Source of the DNA: Thermodesulfobacteriota bacterium
GTDB taxonomy: Bacteria > Desulfobacterota_D > UBA1144 > Nemesobacterales > Nemesobacteraceae
Direction of reading: 5' to 3'
Assembly: GCA_965116725.1 (NCBI GenBank)
Contig: OZ220700.1
Span: 77,897 to 141,896 of the forward strand
DNA: 64,000 nt
Position numbers and translations under genes: made by a program
Notes under the pieces: generated by a model
The model's input: the letters and a program-made list of their open reading frames with translations, nothing else
What the model was told of the DNA's origin: nothing
Databases searched by the model: none
In this document: piece by piece, positions 5,592-13,520 of the stretch
How positions within the stretch are numbered: the first letter of the stretch is position 1
How the letters are laid out: each line of letters starts with the position of its first letter

Positions 5592-5949
5592 GCCTCGAAT
5601 TCAATTCCTCCCCCTGTTTTTCATTGAGAGGGCATCGCTCTTCTAATCGGTAAAAAGAGTGCCGAAATAGTTTTGCTAGGGGAGTTATATATCTAGCTTC
5701 CCTAAACTAGACAATCTACTCAAATAAGTAAGGAGCTAGGGCTACGATTTGTCCATTGGGTAGAGAAACATTATAATTTAAAAGCTCGTTTCATCAAACG
5801 ACAAAAATGCTTCCATCACTCTTTTTGTGCTAATAACTTCGTATAATCAGTAATTATTTCTTTAAGTGGTACTCACAAATGTCACGTTAAATCCAATGAG
5901 CGACTTCTGATCTACGGAAGACTTGGTTTGATCACGAAATCAGGAGTAA

Positions 5950-6251
5950 TATCCCAAGAAATATAACAATGCCAACAGTCTCGGACTAAAGTTTCACCTC
6001 CACAGAAGAGATTTGCCGGATTCGCCGGACCTGATTTCCCCAAGGAGAAAAACAGCACTGTTTGTGCATGGATGTTTCTGGTACAGACGCAAGAATTGTT
6101 TGGGAGCAACGACTCCAAAAACCAACATTGAGTACTGGAACAACAAATTCAGGCACAATATGGAGCACGATAGGGAAAGCAGAAGAAAATTGAGCATAAC
6201 AGCTGGAAAGTCTTTGTGATATGGGGTGTGAAACAAAAACTAGGAAATTAA
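5950..6251 (+). pseudogene. vsr: Very-short-patch repair endonuclease (Vsr) remnant, N-terminally truncated and frameshifted
   Basis: LFVHGCFWYRRKNCLGATTPKTNIEYWNNKFRHNMEHDRESRRKL matches the Vsr core (FVDGCFWH ... PKTN.EFW ... RD). The expected C-terminal SWKVFVIWG block continues in the +1 frame after an A-run near 6180. The first roughly 30 residues are missing. Confidence 0.6.
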
Positions 6252-6311
6252 TAGAAGCTTTTTAAAGGAAAAACTTTTTAATCTAACTGTCAATTCTTCT
6301 ATACATCCCGC

Positions 6312-7901
6312 TTAGGTGCCCATTACCGCACCGGCTTCCATCATAATAGCCTCGATTTCGGGGCGCAATTTATTTGGTATCTCTGCTGCTTGGTTTATCT
6401 GAACATATTTGAAAGTGTTTAGATCAAACGGCACCCGGTCGTCACACTTGGCAGGTTCAAACAAGAAAATAAGGCGGTTCTTCTCGTGGTGCTTAAGGGC
6501 GAATCCCGCTTCGATATAGACATTGGGACGATGACCTGTAAGGTCGCAAACAATAATGTCAGAAGAAGCGATGGCCTCATACATTCTGGAATGAATGGGA
6601 AAAGTGCCGCCTTCCTCAGTTCCCATGTCGATCAGCTCAAGTCTCATACCATGAACTTGCTGAAAAGTATTGAGTGTTTGTTGAAGTTGTTGGAACCGTA
6701 ACACCGCTTTATCGTAGGCATTTTCCGGTGCATCCTGAGCCGGATACCAGCGGGCGAGAAAAACGCGATTGGGGATACGGGACTGTGCCACCTTGAAGGT
6801 TTCAAGTAACTGTTGTGCTGGAGAAATCGGATTCAACAAGTTGGTAATGCCATGGTCGCCTAGCCAATGGCCAATCCGATCAAGGCAATCCACTGTTCGG
6901 CGAACCTTCTTTTCGTGATCTTCCCCATTTTCTTCATGCCAGACTAGAGCAGCCAGTTCAAGGAAGCCATGCGTTTTGCAGAGAGAAGGATGGTTAACTT
7001 CCAACTGCGTAACGATATCGGATAATCCTGCAAACAAGTCATTTGCGAAACTAGTCAATGTTTGTCGATCTCGGGCGATAGCCGCATCCATGTTGATCAT
7101 GTTTCGAGCAGACTCCCACAAGGCAGTCAGTGGACGCTCACCGAATCGCCGCCTTGTCGGTTCCGGCAATCCCTTCAGTTGATTCGCCAGAAGTCGTGTC
7201 AAGTGCAGTTCTTTACTATAGGAAAACTCGTTGTCCGGTGTCATTGCATAATCTGGGTGCTGGCCGAGCAGCAGGTGCATTCCGTGTTCCGATTCTAACG
7301 GCAGCGCAGTGCTGTTGATGGTATGAAAGATCAGCGATTCCGAGAAATCGTCGGCGTCACTATCTGGTGGCCCAAGCAACACCATGCAAAATGGTGCAAG
7401 ATATTTTTGCGGAAGGTTCACGTCCTCCTGCAAATTTTCAGCAAACGCCAGCCGATGGTTTCCATCAATACGGCGGATGAGCTTATCCGCCTTAATTGCT
7501 TCCAATTCACTAGACTTCACCCGCAGTTTCTGAATACGGTGATTCTTTCCTGTGAAACGCCTTCCCATCCTGATGAGGCCATAGCCCTTTGTTTCAATAC
7601 CTACGGTTTCATTGTCAATCTGGATCGGCTCTCCTTCACAACGGACAGCGAGAATCACCTCTGGGATGAAGCGATTGTCACTGTATTCCAGATAGTTCTT
7701 AATATCTTCTGCGTGTTTAGCGTCAAGCTTGCGTTGGTGACCGTCTACTTGACCAGTCTGGTCACCAACAGTCATTTGATAGGGAACGGAAACCGCCGCC
7801 AGATCACGCAAGTCAGCAAAACCACGAATGATCTTGAAGATGCCGAGAACCCCTGCCGAAAACAGTCCTTCGAATTCGATGTATTGTCGTCGACGGGACA
7901 T
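6312..7901 (-). CDS. Fusion protein: DndB-like DGQHR (ParB/Srx-fold) domain N-terminally, nucleoside 2-deoxyribosyltransferase-like (NDT-like) domain C-terminally
   Basis: The N-terminal region carries a QR motif (GHQRKLDAKHAEDIKNYL), a DGxHR motif (IDGNHRLAF) and FHTINSTALPL, typical of DGQHR/DndB-like proteins. The C-terminus has DLTGHRPNVYIEAGFAL, the ExGxA catalytic block of NDT/DNPH1-like domains. The start lies 2 nt after the hsdS stop on the same strand. Confidence 0.55.
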   Translation of the reverse strand: MSRRRQYIEFEGLFSAGVLGIFKIIRGFADLRDLAAVSVPYQMTVGDQTGQVDGHQRKLDAKHAEDIKNYLEYSDNRFIPEVILAVRCEGEPIQIDNETVGIETKGYGLIRMGRRFTGKNHRIQKLRVKSSELEAIKADKLIRRIDGNHRLAFAENLQEDVNLPQKYLAPFCMVLLGPPDSDADDFSESLIFHTINSTALPLESEHGMHLLLGQHPDYAMTPDNEFSYSKELHLTRLLANQLKGLPEPTRRRFGERPLTALWESARNMINMDAAIARDRQTLTSFANDLFAGLSDIVTQLEVNHPSLCKTHGFLELAALVWHEENGEDHEKKVRRTVDCLDRIGHWLGDHGITNLLNPISPAQQLLETFKVAQSRIPNRVFLARWYPAQDAPENAYDKAVLRFQQLQQTLNTFQQVHGMRLELIDMGTEEGGTFPIHSRMYEAIASSDIIVCDLTGHRPNVYIEAGFALKHHEKNRLIFLFEPAKCDDRVPFDLNTFKYVQINQAAEIPNKLRPEIEAIMMEAGAVMGT

Positions 7902-7902
7902 A

Positions 7903-9234
7903 TCAACTTGCCCCTACAGGATGAATGCCGAGGATCATCTTTTCAATATCGGTTTCCCGGTCGATCAATGTACCGTTGGCAGCGCTGATGTTTTTCATTA
8001 TTTTTAGTCGGCGTTGTGCGAAATCTTGCTGAACAGCGCCAGATATTTCGGGAAGCCTGATCTCGGCTAAGTTCGCATAGTACATTCGTTGTTTCACACC
8101 GCCCACTCGGTTGAATGAAACAAGCGAGAGAAAATAGTCCGTCCGCAGCAAAAGCGCCATGAAATCAGGAAGAAAACCGTTTTTTATCCGCCATACTTGA
8201 TATTCTGGACTGGTAATCGCATCATTCGGTACATCCGGCACGATACCGAGGGAACCGACATTGGCGCGGGTCGGGTTATGGAAAAACCAGTCTTTCTCGA
8301 TCTTCTTGTATGACGCATTGAAATCCTTGCCCTTTTGTATAGAACTTAGGAAAATTCCTTCTTCATTGTTAACGCCATATATGAACCATTCCTTCTCAGG
8401 TTCCACCCAAGGTTTGACGGTTTCGGTACATTCCTCAGTATAATCGCCCAGCCGCACAAATTCAGGATTGGTGGAAATGAAAGCAGCTGCACGTCCGGCT
8501 TTTACATCCCATTGTGTAGCATTAGCGTAGTTGGCAAAAAAGACCCTGGAACGGGCGGTTTGACTAAAGGCGTGTGTTTGGTTTGCGAGATAAGTGTGAA
8601 GTTCAGAAACCAAATCCGATAAAGCCACTTCCGCTGCAAATAAATCTTGCCGCGCGGCCGCCCAGTACGCCTCAATCTGCCGCTGAACAGGTAGCGACGG
8701 GACAGGGACTCTAACTACTTCCAACTGTGCTGGTTGAATGCGCTTGCGCCCAGATGTCCCACTAACCATCGAATTTAGATATTTCTTAAACGCCACTGTT
8801 CTAAACAGGAGTCTTATATAGCCCGGAATCGCTTTATCTGTTTTTACTGAATAGACGGGAAACTCCGATGTGACACACATATTCTCAATATCGTCTGGCG
8901 CAAGGCCAATCGCGCCATTGCGTACATCGATCTTCGAGAAAACTACATCACCCGGATGCGCACGAAATAGTCTTCCCTTGATGTCTTTGATTTGAATGGG
9001 AACACGTGGTTCAATTGAACCGTCAAAGCGAATGGTGAGCAACGTGACCCTTGTCTCTGGAGATAGAGTGGCAAGTGCAGCTTCGCTCCTTCTTTCCAAT
9101 ATCTGATTCAATGGCTGGATGATTTCATCAGGCCAATTCCAATTGACAGAAAATTGGGCTGCTACAGACCAAGATGCCAGTTTTTGAAAAGCAACTGAGA
9201 AGGTTCTTGGGCGAAGTAGAGAATCCATACTCAT
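7903..9234 (-). CDS. hsdS: Type I restriction-modification specificity subunit (HsdS), two target-recognition domains
   Basis: A central conserved spacer LEVVRVPVPSLPVQRQIEAYW and a C-terminal conserved LPEISGAVQQDFAQRRLKIM repeat separate two variable TRDs. The start overlaps the methyltransferase stop as ATGA. Confidence 0.85.
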   Translation of the reverse strand: MSMDSLLRPRTFSVAFQKLASWSVAAQFSVNWNWPDEIIQPLNQILERRSEAALATLSPETRVTLLTIRFDGSIEPRVPIQIKDIKGRLFRAHPGDVVFSKIDVRNGAIGLAPDDIENMCVTSEFPVYSVKTDKAIPGYIRLLFRTVAFKKYLNSMVSGTSGRKRIQPAQLEVVRVPVPSLPVQRQIEAYWAAARQDLFAAEVALSDLVSELHTYLANQTHAFSQTARSRVFFANYANATQWDVKAGRAAAFISTNPEFVRLGDYTEECTETVKPWVEPEKEWFIYGVNNEEGIFLSSIQKGKDFNASYKKIEKDWFFHNPTRANVGSLGIVPDVPNDAITSPEYQVWRIKNGFLPDFMALLLRTDYFLSLVSFNRVGGVKQRMYYANLAEIRLPEISGAVQQDFAQRRLKIMKNISAANGTLIDRETDIEKMILGIHPVGAS

Positions 9235-11462
9235 TCTTGCGTGCCTATGATCATGGCGAAGGCCTCTGGGTCAGCCAGAAATTGCCGGTACCACTCCACA
9301 CACGTCTTTTCGATCTCCGGGGGCTGATTGGAATTCGGATAAAGCTCGTTCTGATCCTCCTCGCCGGTAGCAGAAATACCGACCTTTTCTGCTTCATACA
9401 TAAAAATAGGATAGTCGAAGCGTTCCTTGACAAGTTGCCTGGTTTCGGAATGTTTTCTAGCATCCATCTCTTTCGCGTAGTCCTTCAGTTTCTTTTGCAT
9501 GGTCTTACGCGTTTTGGCATCCCTGTTGTCTTTGGCTCGCTGAATAGCGGCTTCCAATAGTGCTTTTTTCGTTGCTATTTCCTCTGCGTACTTGTCTTCT
9601 ACCTCATCCGTGGCAGCAGCAAGGGTTGCGTCGAACCACTGTTGCTCTTGTTCGGTGAATTTCTTCAAAAAGAGCAGCGAACATTTTACACTGGCCCCAG
9701 AACTTATAAAAGTCTCCTCTGGAAGACTTACCACGGCGCGCAGAAAAGCACGGTCTTCGGTGAATTGACGCACGTAAGCCAGCGAGGGATTGTTGTAGAT
9801 ACCTTCGGGCAACACGATCCCCAATCGACCACCGGGTCTAAGCAGGTCAAGGCAACGTTCGATAAACAGTATTTCTGTCTTTATCTTCGCCCGGTTGCTT
9901 TTTGGCAGATCAAACAGGCTGGCAATGGGCTTGTTAAGTGCAGCCCTTACTCTGTCCTGAGCAGCGCGGTAAATATCCCCGTATTCGCTTATGTAGGACT
10001 GCTCTGCCACTGAGTTGACCGTAATATCGGTCTCAAGCACTCTATCGGAAGGTTCGACATTGGCACCGAAAGGCGGATTAGTCAGGATGATGTCAAAACG
10101 ACCCTCGAAGATACCATTGACGTTTAGAAAGCCATCGTGATGATGTACGCCCCCGTGCCCGTCACCGTGCATGATCATGTTCATCTTACTGGTACGCGCC
10201 ATCCTGTCATTGGCATCTGTTCCATAGATGCAGCGATTCGATAGGTTCCACAATCGGGAGCCTTCGCGCTGCTGGTCAATGGACGACTGAATTTCTGTAT
10301 ATTTATCCTGAAGCATTTTGGCTTTTTTTGCTGCGGGCAATGATTTTTTTACGTCAATGCCCTTTTTGTAGGTGTTATATTCCCGGTCGGCGTCTTCCAG
10401 TATTTTTTCCCGCACGAGTTCAAAAACACGGATTAAAAATCCACCTGAACCACTGGCGGGGTCACAGACAATTTCACCTTCTTGAGGATCGACCATGCGT
10501 ACCATGAATTCGACGATGGAGCGTGGAGTGAAAAACTGACCGATCTCTCCCCGAAATGTACGCCCAAGAAAGCGTTCAAAAGCAACACCCTTTACATCTT
10601 CGCTGGTATCGGAAAGGTTGTATTTCTCTAGCTTCCGAACAATCTCTTCACCGGTGGCTGGCCTCAAGTTGATGCGCTCTTCTTTCTCAAAAATCTTGTC
10701 ATTGGCGTAAGCGTTCTTTGTGTTTTGAAAAAGGGTATCTAGCGGATTTTCGGAAATCTGATCATGAAGCACATCAACAGTAAACAGATTCTTCCTATTA
10801 CGTCGGGTCAACAACTGCCGTTCCACATAGACTTTCGTGAACAACACTTTGGCGATCTCATCAAAAGCGGCCGCCGGGTCCTTCTTTTCTCTGTTACGAA
10901 TGATGTTGTGGCACTGGTGTAATAGATCGGCGAATTCTTTTTCCTTGAAGGCGCGCAATTTGGAGAATAATTCAGTAATATCACTGTCCGAAGCATCACC
11001 ATGCGGAATATTTTCGATTTCCTCAGTGTAACCGGGCAGTTTATCTTTTATTATTCGCCAGTATTTTGTTTCCCGCGAATTATGGGTAACAAAAAAGGGT
11101 GCGCCACAGATACGCGCATAATTTTCGCCCTGATTGTAATCCTGAGCTTTGATCGTGACGTTATCGGATTTGCATTCGACAATAATAAAGGGAGCGTTAT
11201 TGTCCGCTTTATCCTGTTGCGTCCGCCATATGACGAAATCCGCTCTAGCCCCGGCACTACCCGGACCGGTCAGATCTAGTTCCTCCGATATTTGGGCGGG
11301 TGTGAAACCATATTCGTTGATCAGTATCAATAAGTAATTTTGTCGTACGGTCTCTTCGGGGGTTTCAACTAACCATTTACTGCGAATGTAGCTCCAGATT
11401 TGTCCTTTTGACTCGTCTCGTTTGATATTTAAGGCACTCATATCTCGGTGTTTCCTTTGCAA
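9231..11462 (-). CDS. Gamma-class N6-adenine DNA methyltransferase (HsdM-like) with an N-terminal HsdR_N-type PD-(D/E)xK domain
   Basis: Motif X/I (QFFTPRSIVEFMV ... DPASGSGGFL) and motif IV (ILTNPPFG) are present. Residues about 60 to 130 (ADFVIW ... FIIVECKSDN ... QGENYA) resemble the HsdR N-terminal restriction-endonuclease-like domain. Confidence 0.85.
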   Translation of the reverse strand: MQRKHRDMSALNIKRDESKGQIWSYIRSKWLVETPEETVRQNYLLILINEYGFTPAQISEELDLTGPGSAGARADFVIWRTQQDKADNNAPFIIVECKSDNVTIKAQDYNQGENYARICGAPFFVTHNSRETKYWRIIKDKLPGYTEEIENIPHGDASDSDITELFSKLRAFKEKEFADLLHQCHNIIRNREKKDPAAAFDEIAKVLFTKVYVERQLLTRRNRKNLFTVDVLHDQISENPLDTLFQNTKNAYANDKIFEKEERINLRPATGEEIVRKLEKYNLSDTSEDVKGVAFERFLGRTFRGEIGQFFTPRSIVEFMVRMVDPQEGEIVCDPASGSGGFLIRVFELVREKILEDADREYNTYKKGIDVKKSLPAAKKAKMLQDKYTEIQSSIDQQREGSRLWNLSNRCIYGTDANDRMARTSKMNMIMHGDGHGGVHHHDGFLNVNGIFEGRFDIILTNPPFGANVEPSDRVLETDITVNSVAEQSYISEYGDIYRAAQDRVRAALNKPIASLFDLPKSNRAKIKTEILFIERCLDLLRPGGRLGIVLPEGIYNNPSLAYVRQFTEDRAFLRAVVSLPEETFISSGASVKCSLLFLKKFTEQEQQWFDATLAAATDEVEDKYAEEIATKKALLEAAIQRAKDNRDAKTRKTMQKKLKDYAKEMDARKHSETRQLVKERFDYPIFMYEAEKVGISATGEEDQNELYPNSNQPPEIEKTCVEWYRQFLADPEAFAMIIGTQE

Positions 11463-11530
11463 ACTAAGCTATCTTGGACAACCTCTTCTGAAAAGGTCGT
11501 GGTTTCTTGTTTTATTCTATTGCCCTGCTT

Positions 11531-11557
11531 GTCATTGGTTGGTGTCGTACCAATGAC
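11531..11557. promoter_or_regulatory. Perfect 9-bp inverted repeat (GTCATTGGT n9 ACCAATGAC) upstream of the methyltransferase operon start
   Basis: Seen directly in the sequence. It lies about 70 to 95 bp upstream of the start codon of the 9231..11462 gene, on the promoter side. A second palindrome CACGGGTACCCCGTG is at about 11600. Confidence 0.3.
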
Positions 11558-12308
11558 CCGTATCGCATAGTCAATATTCGTGTACCTGTTTCGATTTCGC
11601 CACGGGTACCCCGTGTTCGTTGCAATGGGAATTATATACAATCCTACACAAAACTTTGAATTTCTCCCTGTAAGACCTTAACTCTCACTCTTGTTTTAGG
11701 TGATATTTTACACAAATAGAGAGAATGATTAAGAAGAGTTAGAAATGTCTAAGAAGAAACGTAAAACCCTTGGGAAGTCAGACGGAGAGGGGATAGAATT
11801 GAGAAACTGTTTTAACTCTTTCCGACTGAGGAAGCGACGGTGAAGTAGTTTGAGGAAAGACGCTGGCCAATACGTACAAACAACGGTGACAGCCGATTAA
11901 AGCCCGGCGAATACCTTTTAGAATCTGGCTCTCCAGATTCAGGTTCATATAATTTTCTGGATCCATATCGACTCGACTTCGTGCTCTTTGTCGTACTTAA
12001 AATGAAAGGACAAAGAACATTACACAAGAGCTCGCTAGCTGGACATAGCTGTTAGGTTATTTGGGCCGGCCGAAAATATCGGATCAGAAAGCTACGCTGG
12101 AAAGGCTTACTAAGAAGTTCGAACATGAAAAAGAAAAACCAAACTAAGAAAACTCGAGACCGGCCAGTCAAGAACTTAAGCAAGCCTACCAATGCCTCAC
12201 CAGAAGAAACAGCTAAAGCAATATCTCTGCCGGCGGAAAAGAAGCTAGAAGTCTCAAAGAAAATCAAGAACTAAGAGTCTGGTAGAATTGTATATAATTT
12301 CCAATCCA

Positions 12309-12575
12309 TTAGATGAAATGTTTGGTCCATATCCAAATTTCAGCAGTAATACACGCTCTGAGCTTCTGCCGTAACTTCTCTGGTGTCTCCCAAACAATAC
12401 GATTGTATTGGCGTGTGTCGAAACGGATTTTCTCTATTACATCTCTACAAGTAAATATCACCGGAATATTGAGTCCATGAGCAAAGTCCGCTTCGTAGTA
12501 GACACCCTATACTGGGTTCTCACTCCTCAGTTGCTAAAGGCTCCGGTCCATAAGTAATTTCCTTAGATTCTCCTT
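12309..12575 (-). pseudogene. Decayed paralog of the NDT-like domain (remnant with in-frame stops)
   Basis: Minus-strand translation gives LRSENPV*GVYYEADFAHGLNIPVIFTCRDVIEKIRFDTRQYNRIVWETPEKLRQKLRA. This aligns with the C-terminus of the 6312..7901 protein (DLTGHRPNVYIEAGFALKHHEKNRLIFLF ... VPFDLNTFKYVQ ... PNKLRPEIEA). It is interrupted by TAG stops and has no start. Confidence 0.4.
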
Positions 12576-13116
12576 CTCCTATCTCCCAGCATTGACGAAA
12601 TCTTTCTAAACGATCCGAGCTGAAGCGAGCCTCATATAAGCGAGTAGAGCGGGTTGCTACGACTGAAAATTGGAAGGATTCATCACGTGCCAAGGAATTC
12701 ATTTTCTCGACCATTTCTTCTTCGTTGGTATCCCACAGTTCTATGTCTCTCGCGTTGCCTCCTTTGTTGTCGATTATCCAGATCCACCAATTCTCGTGTG
12801 AATCGATTCGAAGAGTGAGATGGGGTATGATATCCCGTGAGTCTGCTTTCTGTAACAATTCAGTCTGCTTGCCGAGCTGATCTCGCGTAAGCGATAACTC
12901 CTTGCGCTGAAGGCGGAGTTCTTTGGACTGCAGGAAATACCCGTATACCAGCCAAAGGAAAGCTAGAGGTGTGAAGAGACCTGCAAGAAAGTCTCCCAAC
13001 TCGCTAAGGTTGCCTGCCTTTAAGAGCTCCCATGCATCGTTACTGCGGAAAAAGAGAATGGCGACAATGTAGAGAATACTCAGGCCAACTATTATCCAGG
13101 AATTAGAAAACTTCAT
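12520..13116 (-). CDS. Hypothetical membrane protein (two predicted N-terminal TM helices, coiled-coil-like middle)
   Basis: Hydrophobic stretches WIIVGLSILYIVAILFF and LAGLFTPLAFLWLVYGYFL. It is AT-rich. Its 3' end overlaps the NDT-like remnant in another frame, so it may be the decayed N-terminal half of one former gene. Confidence 0.4.
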   Translation of the reverse strand: MKFSNSWIIVGLSILYIVAILFFRSNDAWELLKAGNLSELGDFLAGLFTPLAFLWLVYGYFLQSKELRLQRKELSLTRDQLGKQTELLQKADSRDIIPHLTLRIDSHENWWIWIIDNKGGNARDIELWDTNEEEMVEKMNSLARDESFQFSVVATRSTRLYEARFSSDRLERFRQCWEIGEGESKEITYGPEPLATEE

Positions 13117-13454
13117 TCTTCCGCCTTCCGCGTGTCCTACTCCGGAACTTTTGGGGTTCAGGGTTTCCCTCAGAAGTCGCTAGCAGATTTCGCCGCATAC
13201 TCTATAGTAATAGAATTTACTGAATGATTAACAGGAATCAATAGAAATTATGCCAACCCCTGTTTGCCGCTTCTAGCATTGAAGAAAGAGTGGTCAAACC
13301 ATTTTTGCAGCCATACTTGGGTTTCCTCGAAATAGTTCCGCTCCAGTAGTGATATTTTCCCCCCTGCGGTTAAAATGATTTTCCGAATCCAGGCTTTCGC
13401 TTCAGCTCCAAAGCACCGTTTTGAGCGTCTGAGGCCGGGTTCCGGATTACAAGG

Positions 13455-13477
13455 GCAACATGGTTTTTCCATGTTGC
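13455..13477. promoter_or_regulatory. Perfect palindrome GCAACATGG-TTTTT-CCATGTTGC about 45 bp upstream of aceE
   Basis: A 9-bp inverted repeat with a 5-nt spacer read directly in the sequence. Its position fits an operator or leader hairpin for the pyruvate dehydrogenase operon. Confidence 0.35.
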
Positions 13478-13520
13478 AAATTTCCCCTGCGGCCCCGTTT
13501 CGCCGCGTTTTGCATGGGTA

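Follow-up and report, generated by a model that had tools for sequence, protein, structure and literature searches.

A ParB-like and N-glycosidase-like protein encoded as the last gene of a Type I-like methylase operon: a candidate effector of a mobile restriction–modification cassette

We analysed a window of 64,000 nucleotides from a Thermodesulfobacteriota bacterium (assembly GCA_965116725.1, contig OZ220700.1, positions 77,897 to 141,896) and, within it, the protein encoded at 6312–7901, hereafter T. Judging from its sequence and predicted structure, T is an uncharacterised protein that joins a ParB/DndB-like nucleotide-switch domain to a domain of the kind that cleaves sugar–base bonds. 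Its gene is the third and last of a translationally coupled operon on the minus strand, M-S-T. The conserved partners of T are an N6-adenine methylase with a PD-ExK N-terminal domain (M) and an HsdS-like specificity subunit (S), not phosphorothioation genes. The reading that we favour, plausible but tentative, is that T acts as the effector in a phage defence cassette of the restriction–modification (R-M) type, which has three genes and moves horizontally. T is probably an effector since it is almost always the last gene of a methylase/specificity-subunit operon. This sensor–effector pairing is unusual: in the full-text literature searched, whose coverage is incomplete, we found no description of a fusion of a DGQHR domain with a domain of the nucleoside 2-deoxyribosyltransferase (NDT)/TIR class, nor of the three-gene cassette.

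A first-pass annotation of the window, made from the sequence alone, had described the domains of T and missed the M-S-T operon, which is the most informative fact on this protein. The framework that it had proposed, DNA sensing coupled to glycosidic-bond chemistry, remains the best one.

Domain identity of T

T is a single uninterrupted open reading frame (ORF) of 529 codons, exactly at 6312–7901, as the first-pass annotation had reported. All the motifs quoted there are present. The strand, which it had not given, is the minus strand, and the plus-strand reading of the interval is riddled with stops. The features of T are the following.

6312–7901 (−): T, 529 amino acids (aa), with a ParB/Srx DGQHR-type domain, a helical domain and a predicted NDT/TIR-class N-glycosidase domain; stop codon at 6312–6314
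7254–7901 (−): N-terminal domain, about aa 1–216, predicted ParB/Srx fold of the DGQHR type, with a variable beta-rich insert at about aa 87–130
7731–7736 (−): Q56-R57, the "QR pair" of DGQHR/DUF262 domains (motif definition from PMC4619093), invariant in alignment A2
7452–7466 (−): D146-G-N-H-R150, the DGQHR pentapeptide in the form specific to this family, corresponding to GERR of ParB, invariant in alignments A1, A2 and A4
7314–7328 (−): F192-H-T-I-N196, the FxxxN motif, with F invariant and N nearly invariant in A2
6783–7253 (−): helical middle domain, about aa 217–373 (secondary structure of the AlphaFold2 (AF2) model), holding the invariant W346
6315–6782 (−): C-terminal domain, about aa 374–529, a predicted flavodoxin-like N-glycosidase of the NDT/MilB/DNPH1-TIR class
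6501–6563 (−): active-site block S447–F467 with D448, D453, R458, N460 and the putative nucleophile E464 (nt 6510–6512), from the alignment with NDT, Rcl and BcmB

Further motifs lie at I67..Y70-L71, I145-DGNHR150-LAF and S447-DIIVCDLTGHRPNVYIEAGF-A468, the last including E464. Residue numbers are the true ones; Met1 is absent from alignments A1 and A2 and from the full-length AF2 model, hence their numbering is one lower.

A search of the non-redundant proteins returned 665 relatives of T. The best 120 of these are all full-length (515–551 aa) and 65–97% identical to T; all are unnamed or called "hypothetical", and they come from very different phyla. From representatives at 50% identity, 545 relatives were obtained, down to about 21% identity, and 44 diverse sequences reaching this same divergence were aligned (A2). 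The residues R26, G27, S38, Q56, R57, P80, E81, D146, G147, N148, H149, R150, F192, W346, F381, N460, V461, E464 and G466 are invariant in this alignment.

The DGQHR domain has been defined by a QR pair, a DGQHR pentapeptide and an FxxxN motif (PMC4619093), and the first-pass annotation had assigned the N-terminal part of T to this type. The assignment holds for the QR pair and for the FxxxN motif, and the DGQHR profile TIGR03187 was matched by each of the 44 family members scanned singly (best 3e-15). The pentapeptide, however, is not canonical: it reads DGNHR, with D, G, H and R kept and the N fixed in all homologs. Moreover, every one of these TIGR03187 scores lies under the curated cut-off of 58.85, including that of the window T (2.5e-9, 37.3 bits). 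The window T also stays below the cut-off of 29.1 for Pfam DndB (PF14072; 0.017, 14.7 bits), a family matched by 24 of the 44 members, while DGQHR_dnd_1 was matched by 20 and NCBIfam DpdB, weakly, by 15. Neither the DUF262/GmrSD_N nor the HNH/DUF1524 profile was matched by the window T.

DndB and DpdB are thus the best profile relatives of the N-terminal domain (TIGR03187, TIGR04172, NF041060, PF14072). DpdB, a ParB-like ATPase, acts together with an enzyme that exchanges bases on DNA (PMC12839542). T differs from both by its predicted additional C-terminal catalytic domain, by the N in place of Q in the pentapeptide, by its sub-cut-off scores and by the absence of dnd and dpd neighbours.

The weak matches to DndB and DGQHR_dnd_1 bear on one alternative, namely that T is a DNA-binding regulator of a modification operon whose C-terminal domain is a ligand sensor rather than a catalyst. 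DndB is known to regulate dnd negatively (PMC4507180), and the first-pass annotation had likewise placed the N-terminal domain with the regulators of phosphorothioation systems. Nevertheless, we found no dnd, ssp or dpd gene either in the window or among the neighbours examined at related loci, which leaves the role of a DndB-like phosphorothioation regulator unsupported. In addition, the catalytic Glu and its neighbours are invariant over about 21–97% identity, which argues for catalysis, and a position at the end of the operon, with translational coupling, is untypical of a regulator. We find this alternative hardly credible.

Taken alone, the C-terminal domain of the window T gave a weak match to the Pfam CAP12/Pycsar TIR-like family (PF10137; 0.034) and a PADLOC "Effector TIR" match that covers only the TIR-like tail (1.2e-9). 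The window T did not match Pfam Nuc_deoxyrib_tr (PF05014) at E≤0.1, nor, as a single query, any PDB sequence. Among the 44 members, Nuc_deoxyrib_tr was matched by 20 (best 7e-9) and the CAP12/Pycsar TIR-like family by 12. The profile of the T family found, among PDB sequences, the NDT of Trypanosoma brucei (3e-4), Rcl/DNPH1 and the CMP N-glycosidase BcmB; TIR-STING (CAP12) and PycTIR came lower, at 0.04–0.16. The catalytic Glu of T. brucei NDT, Rcl and BcmB corresponds to E464 and D69 of Rcl to D448, while R458 stands at the place of the phosphate-binding Ser87 of Rcl. The catalytic Glu that the first-pass annotation had pointed out is invariant down to about 21% identity.

The AF2 model of full-length T (pLDDT 73, pTM 0.43) shows three domains. 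The predicted fold is ParB/Srx for the N-terminal domain, which was folded separately with an alignment of close homologs only, and a flavodoxin-like NDT fold for the C-terminal domain, with BcmB and DNPH1 as its closest structures in Foldseek (E ~1e-3, TM 0.70). Family profiles, conservation and predicted fold thus agree with the NDT/DNPH1 assignment of the first-pass annotation, but the domain covers about 150 residues rather than the last 90 or so. The catalytic Glu is conserved in the alignments with DNPH1 and NDT and, like DGNHR, in those of the T homologs, and profile similarity was detected to the DndB/DGQHR as well as to the NDT families.

On sequence grounds, these domain matches are not chance. 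In structure and in profile, the matches to NDT, MilB and DNPH1 are as good as or better than those to TIR-like NADases, and the C-terminal domain lies between these two groups, squarely in neither. T is not a member of any curated family, since all its profile scores are below cut-off, its pentapeptide is altered and the defining partner genes of the Dnd, Dpd and MADS systems are absent. Membership in these three systems was accordingly rejected, on gene content and sub-cut-off scores.

The M-S-T operon and its relatives

The three genes form a cassette of about 5.1 kb, and the two partner genes show the following features.

7903–9234 (−): S, a 443-aa HsdS-like specificity subunit with two target-recognition domains (TRDs); its stop lies 1 nt before the T start (TGA-T-ATG)
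9231–11441 (−): M, 736 aa, ATG at 11441; behind an N-terminal HSDR_N_2 PD-(D/E)xK domain it carries a gamma-class N6-adenine methylase, and its stop codon and the start of S overlap within ATGA
11169–11240 (−): nuclease-type motif of M, D68 ... E89-C90-K91, invariant in 15 M homologs down to 30% identity
10068–10079 (−): catalytic motif of M, N455-P-P-F458, invariant in the 15 M homologs
11631–11660 (−): TTCAAA-18-TATAAT ahead of M, resembling a promoter by consensus only

Promoter and terminator scans performed no better than shuffled expectation and carry no weight.

M matches N6_Mtase (2.6e-34) and, over its full length, the PADLOC model MTase_I (PDLC03018, 9e-227), and S matches Methylase_S and PADLOC Specificity_I (2.2e-44). 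PADLOC v2.0.0 therefore recognises M and S, and of T only the TIR-like tail. Like Type I and Type IIB R-M systems and like MAD2/MAD5 of MADS, the operon combines an HsdM-like gamma-class N6-adenine methylase with a two-TRD, HsdS-like S, and M has the N-terminal PD-ExK domain of BcgI-type enzymes and MAD2. Although an HsdM-type methylase and an HsdS subunit are thus present in the window, no SF2-motor HsdR lies between dnaK and aceE. The MADS scores are far under their cut-offs (MADS2, 301.8 vs. 720; MADS5, 26.4 vs. 400), no further mad genes were found in the window, and the third gene has no precedent in any of these systems.

We then surveyed the loci anchored on T. Keeping one genome per species, we obtained 79 loci, of which 61 have at least 3.8 kb upstream of T. 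The 79 loci belong to Pseudomonadota, Desulfobacterota, Nitrospirota, Acidobacteriota, Verrucomicrobiota, Planctomycetota, Cyanobacteria, Bacteroidota and Bacillota, plus one Methanomicrobiales archaeon. Their T is between 71% and 26% identical to the window T, in almost all cases along its full length. Directly upstream of T, we found M-S in 54 of the 61 loci, a classical hsdM-hsdS-hsdR set in 6 and a degraded M in 1; the linkage of T to M-S or to hsdMSR is therefore near-obligate. The gap that separates T from the gene before it is most often +1 nt or −4 nt. M is still 56–81% identical where T falls to about 30%, while S is highly variable between loci. T itself is 65–80% identical across distant phyla, which indicates that it is mobile.

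The six hsdMSR loci are of the Bacillota type (L062, L064, L066, L080, L081 and L082; hsd set confirmed with Pfam in L066). Their T is 26–30% identical, 482–495 aa long and located at about 8001–9460. The locus with the degraded M (L030, Rhodobacteraceae, 6359–9613) is the sole T-anchored locus in which M is cut to a C-terminal fragment, and its T is frameshifted into two reading frames (high-scoring segment pairs at 7998–9206 and 9188–9613). This is what one would expect if loss of M is followed by loss of T, but it is a single case.

M and T also occur in one polypeptide. The protein WP_264214082.1 of Leisingera thetidis plasmid pBMJM1_1 (747 aa, annotated "N-6 DNA methylase"; NZ_CP109788.1 328057–330300, i.e. 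L084:6939–9182) consists of an M-type methylase core that holds NPPF (31% identity, 1e-30), fused to the latter half of the T DGNHR domain (DGNHR/FHNIN; 36%, 4e-13) and to the T C-terminal glycosidase domain (ADLT..NVYHEIGY; 4e-7). No S gene adjoins it. This fusion is also the only match, a partial one, that tblastn of T returned from 72,556 plasmids, and none was returned from 50,697 phage genomes. In viral or prophage contigs of IMG/VR, even T relatives at 22–26% identity have M as a neighbour; in some cases the order is M-T-S or an additional small gene is present.

Two singleton metagenomic proteins among the relatives at the 50%-identity level, P0214 (387 aa) and P0215 (473 aa), share an identical C-terminus of 167 residues with a T-type glycosidase domain. 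The N-terminus of the former is an HsdS TRD fragment and that of the latter a GmrSD_N (DUF262) domain. Shuffling by recombination at an R-M locus, or an error of assembly, could have produced them. P0214 was considered as a second supporting fusion and downgraded, since it occurs only once and has its last 167 residues in common with P0215.

When loci are anchored on M instead, T is one of several third genes. In the 47 M-anchored metagenomic loci with enough downstream DNA, the third gene is T in 13, an ABC-ATPase matching the AAA_15, AAA_21 and SMC_N profiles in 12, and another gene or none in 22. The third position therefore acts like a slot for interchangeable effectors, occupied by T, by ABC-ATPase/OLD-type proteins or by others. 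The M-S pair looks like a recognition and marking platform to which exchangeable third components are added, T being one of them. Given its invariant PD-ExK motif, M-S may also be a self-sufficient R-M enzyme.

The ABC-ATPase loci (L085, L147, L152–L156, L158–L161, L165 and L166) carry an M of a sister clade, about 45% identical. In L085, a Flammeovirga plasmid (10704–12410), the third-position protein has an OLD-type TOPRIM domain in addition. In loci of the L152 type, the ABC-ATPase is followed by an unknown protein of 291 aa and then by a second ATPase (AAA_21/DUF2813).

Proposed mechanism and competing readings

Under the reading that we favour, T would dock on the recognition/methylation complex formed by M and S, and its ParB-like domain would act as an NTP- and DNA-gated switch. 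The ParB-like domains of GmrSD, SspE, BrxU and DpdB are indeed NTPases that gate a partner activity on DNA (PMC12839542, PMC4619093), and ParB-like COG1479/DGQHR proteins fused to toxins have been found in Type I R-M loci (PMC3632139). The predicted ParB/Srx domain of T has all three nucleotide-binding-type motifs. The trigger could be the engagement of unmodified (unmethylated) target DNA by the M-S complex; alternatively, phage anti-restriction factors that disable the R-M complex could activate T, as in the "guard" model of PrrC. The guard model is attractive since T also follows complete hsdMSR sets, many M-S loci lack T, and the alternative third gene is of the ABC-ATPase/OLD type, a class used by known guard systems.

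Upon activation, the N-terminal domains would close or dimerise, driven by NTP or DNA, and thereby pair two C-terminal domains. We propose this pairing because NDT and DNPH1 enzymes function as obligate dimers and TIR NADases must self-associate before their active sites are complete. E464, which together with the conserved D448 marks the predicted NDT/TIR-class active site, would then cleave N-glycosidic bonds. The most likely substrate would be NAD+ or adenine nucleotides, as for the NDT-like effector of retron Ec86 and the TIR-like effectors of CBASS, Pycsar and SPARTA, and the outcome would be arrest of the infected cell. This substrate is favoured because, to our knowledge, every characterised prokaryotic defence effector of the NDT/TIR fold class acts on small nucleotides, the retron Ec86 effector included.

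The closest functional parallel is that retron (Retron-Eco1), whose NDT-like effector has a catalytic Glu/Asp pair (E106/D69), needs dimerisation and is controlled via the bound nucleic acid and its methylation state; DNA methylation activates this effector, and its action depletes adenine derivatives (bioRxiv 10.1101/2023.08.16.553469). T is likewise NDT-like with a Glu/Asp pair. Unlike in the retron, the putative sensor of T is a ParB-like domain plus an R-M module rather than a reverse transcriptase with msDNA, and no PADLOC retron-effector model was matched by T. T also differs from CAP12/TIR-STING, PycTIR and TIR-SAVED in being unlinked to cyclic-nucleotide signalling genes.

PrrC and RloC, together with the abortive-infection toxins embedded in Type I loci, offer a parallel of setting. 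They are latent toxins with an N-terminal NTPase regulatory domain, located inside or at the end of a Type I operon on which they depend, and T follows a complete hsdM-hsdS-hsdR set in the six Bacillota-type loci. PrrC, however, has an ABC-type NTPase and an anticodon nuclease, both unrelated to the domains of T. The architecture of T also resembles that of GmrSD, SspE and BrxU (a DUF262 ParB-like NTPase with an HNH/DUF1524 nuclease) and of the COG1479 proteins of Type I loci, in that a ParB-NTPase-type domain is combined with an effector. In contrast to these proteins, the predicted effector of T is an NDT/TIR-class N-glycosidase and not a nuclease, its N-terminal domain is of the DGQHR type with a fixed DGNHR, and it is strictly coupled to an N6-methyladenine (m6A) methylase/specificity pair instead of standing alone.

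Several points weigh against a role of T as a nucleotide-depleting effector. We infer every mechanistic step, including the substrate, the trigger and the contact between M and T. The window T scores under the curated cut-off of every matching family, and its C-terminal domain is no nearer to NADase TIRs than to the nucleotide and nucleoside N-glycosidases MilB, DNPH1 and NDT. Many M-S loci lack T and M has an invariant PD-ExK motif, so that T may be an accessory rather than the restriction subunit. Finally, DNA-binding modules are attached to the effector (the ParB domain, the methylase and perhaps DUF262/HsdS in the two singletons), which would also fit an action on DNA itself.

This tethering leads to a rival in which T damages DNA. 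The ParB-like domain would load at, or slide from, an unmethylated site bound by M-S, and the NDT-like domain would excise bases from the foreign DNA; the abasic sites would be converted to breaks, and the cell would survive as in classical restriction. The effector is always attached to DNA-handling modules, be it ParB/DGQHR in T, M in the Leisingera fusion or DUF262/HsdS in P0215 and P0214. P0215 has the architecture of GmrSD, with the T-type domain where GmrSD has its HNH nuclease. R458, at the site of the phosphate-binding Ser87 of Rcl, is compatible with backbone contacts. DpdB, a DGQHR ATPase, assists the DNA transglycosylase DpdA (PMC12839542), a precedent for a ParB-like NTPase combined with glycosidic chemistry on DNA, and for the NDT domains of Abi-like proteins an action on DNA has been proposed by Aravind and colleagues (PMC3710099).

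On the other side, P0214 and P0215, each a singleton and both with the same C-terminus, may be products of rearrangement or of misassembly, and M already has an invariant nuclease motif. The characterised defence members of the NDT/TIR class act on NAD+ or free nucleotides, and we know of no NDT/TIR-class domain that excises bases from duplex DNA. A restriction glycosylase therefore appears to us a serious competitor, yet rather unlikely. We regard as unlikelier still the more general proposal that M-S-T is a new R-M class, in which restriction would not occur by phosphodiester cleavage with a motor-driven nuclease; rather, an NDT-fold enzyme, delivered by a ParB-type NTP-gated DNA clamp from unmethylated sites that a Type I-like methylase/specificity complex reads, would remove or exchange bases.

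T might also modify host DNA. Like DpdA/DpdB, it would swap a base by NTP hydrolysis and deoxyribosyl transfer, leaving a second mark beside m6A. NDT enzymes are indeed transferases that act via a covalent glycosyl-Glu intermediate, and DpdB, whose NCBIfam model is weakly matched by 15 of the 44 members, powers the base exchange by DpdA (PMC12839542). However, neither the cassette nor its surroundings contain genes for the biosynthesis of an unusual base, and the cassette already has a complete methylase. Moreover, the slot of T is filled in sister loci by ABC-ATPase/OLD-type proteins, and OLD-family proteins are nucleases, not modification enzymes. This makes base exchange very improbable.

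The matches to MilB and DNPH1 prompted a further alternative, in which T hydrolyses the modified (d)NMPs that phages make to escape R-M (5-hm-dCMP, 5-hm-dUMP) and so complements the R-M function of its operon. Such a hydrolase would have no evident need for a ParB-like DNA module or for a strict operonic coupling (60 of 61 loci). We judge it improbable.

If the cassette defends against phages, as the favoured effector reading holds, it would join two fields of study that have so far been kept separate, Type I-like self/non-self marking and the NDT/TIR-class N-glycosidase effectors that destroy NAD+ or nucleotides, via a ParB-type nucleotide switch. The PD-ExK M-S module would then be a docking platform with exchangeable third subunits (T, ABC-ATPase/OLD-type or none), a view that would help to annotate many "orphan" Type I-like methylases. 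Should the substrate be DNA, T would represent a restriction chemistry of a new kind, from which programmable tools for base excision might be developed. If T removed bases, it would be a second, unrelated invention of a "restriction glycosylase" after R.PabI, and the first NDT/TIR-class enzyme acting on duplex DNA in prokaryotic immunity. The cassette is compact and offers clear targets for point mutation (E464, D448, DGNHR and QR), and it should be readily testable.

Genomic surroundings of the cassette

The GC content falls to 41–49% at about 5600–13500, between dnaK (52–54%) and aceE (55–58%), which fits a horizontally acquired island. At this island, we found no tRNA (ARAGORN returned none), integrase or repeat-defined integration site; direct repeats were not searched for. 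The low-GC stretch between the M promoter region and aceE holds an ORF of 198 aa with a hydrophobic N-terminus (13116–12520, minus strand), which has no Pfam, NCBIfam or PADLOC match.

We looked for a conserved fourth gene 3' of T and found none. The position holds unrelated conflict-type genes, a different one in almost all lineages, whose start often overlaps the T stop (gap of −3 nt). These encode DUF5655 with NucS_C or DUF4145 (HEPN) (L003, L004 and L012), Fic (L013 and L015), a zeta-toxin-like kinase (L029), Mrr (L090), DUF4357/RAMA (L045–47), T5orf172 (L075) and DUF6880 (L020 and L025). Variable conflict genes are known to collect in R-M operons (PMC3710099, PMC3632139).

In the window, there is no conflict-type gene 3' of T, only a truncated and frameshifted remnant of a Vsr gene (very-short-patch repair endonuclease) at 6013–6240 on the plus strand, convergent with the 3' end of T. 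Its ORF of 68 aa (6013–6219) covers just positions 46–70 of the 74-position Pfam Vsr profile (3.6e-7), and the C-terminal motif of the GW.V..W type carries on in another frame. The contig of a 97%-identical T relative (L167) has an intact pair of a Dcm-type methylase and Vsr upstream of M-S-T.

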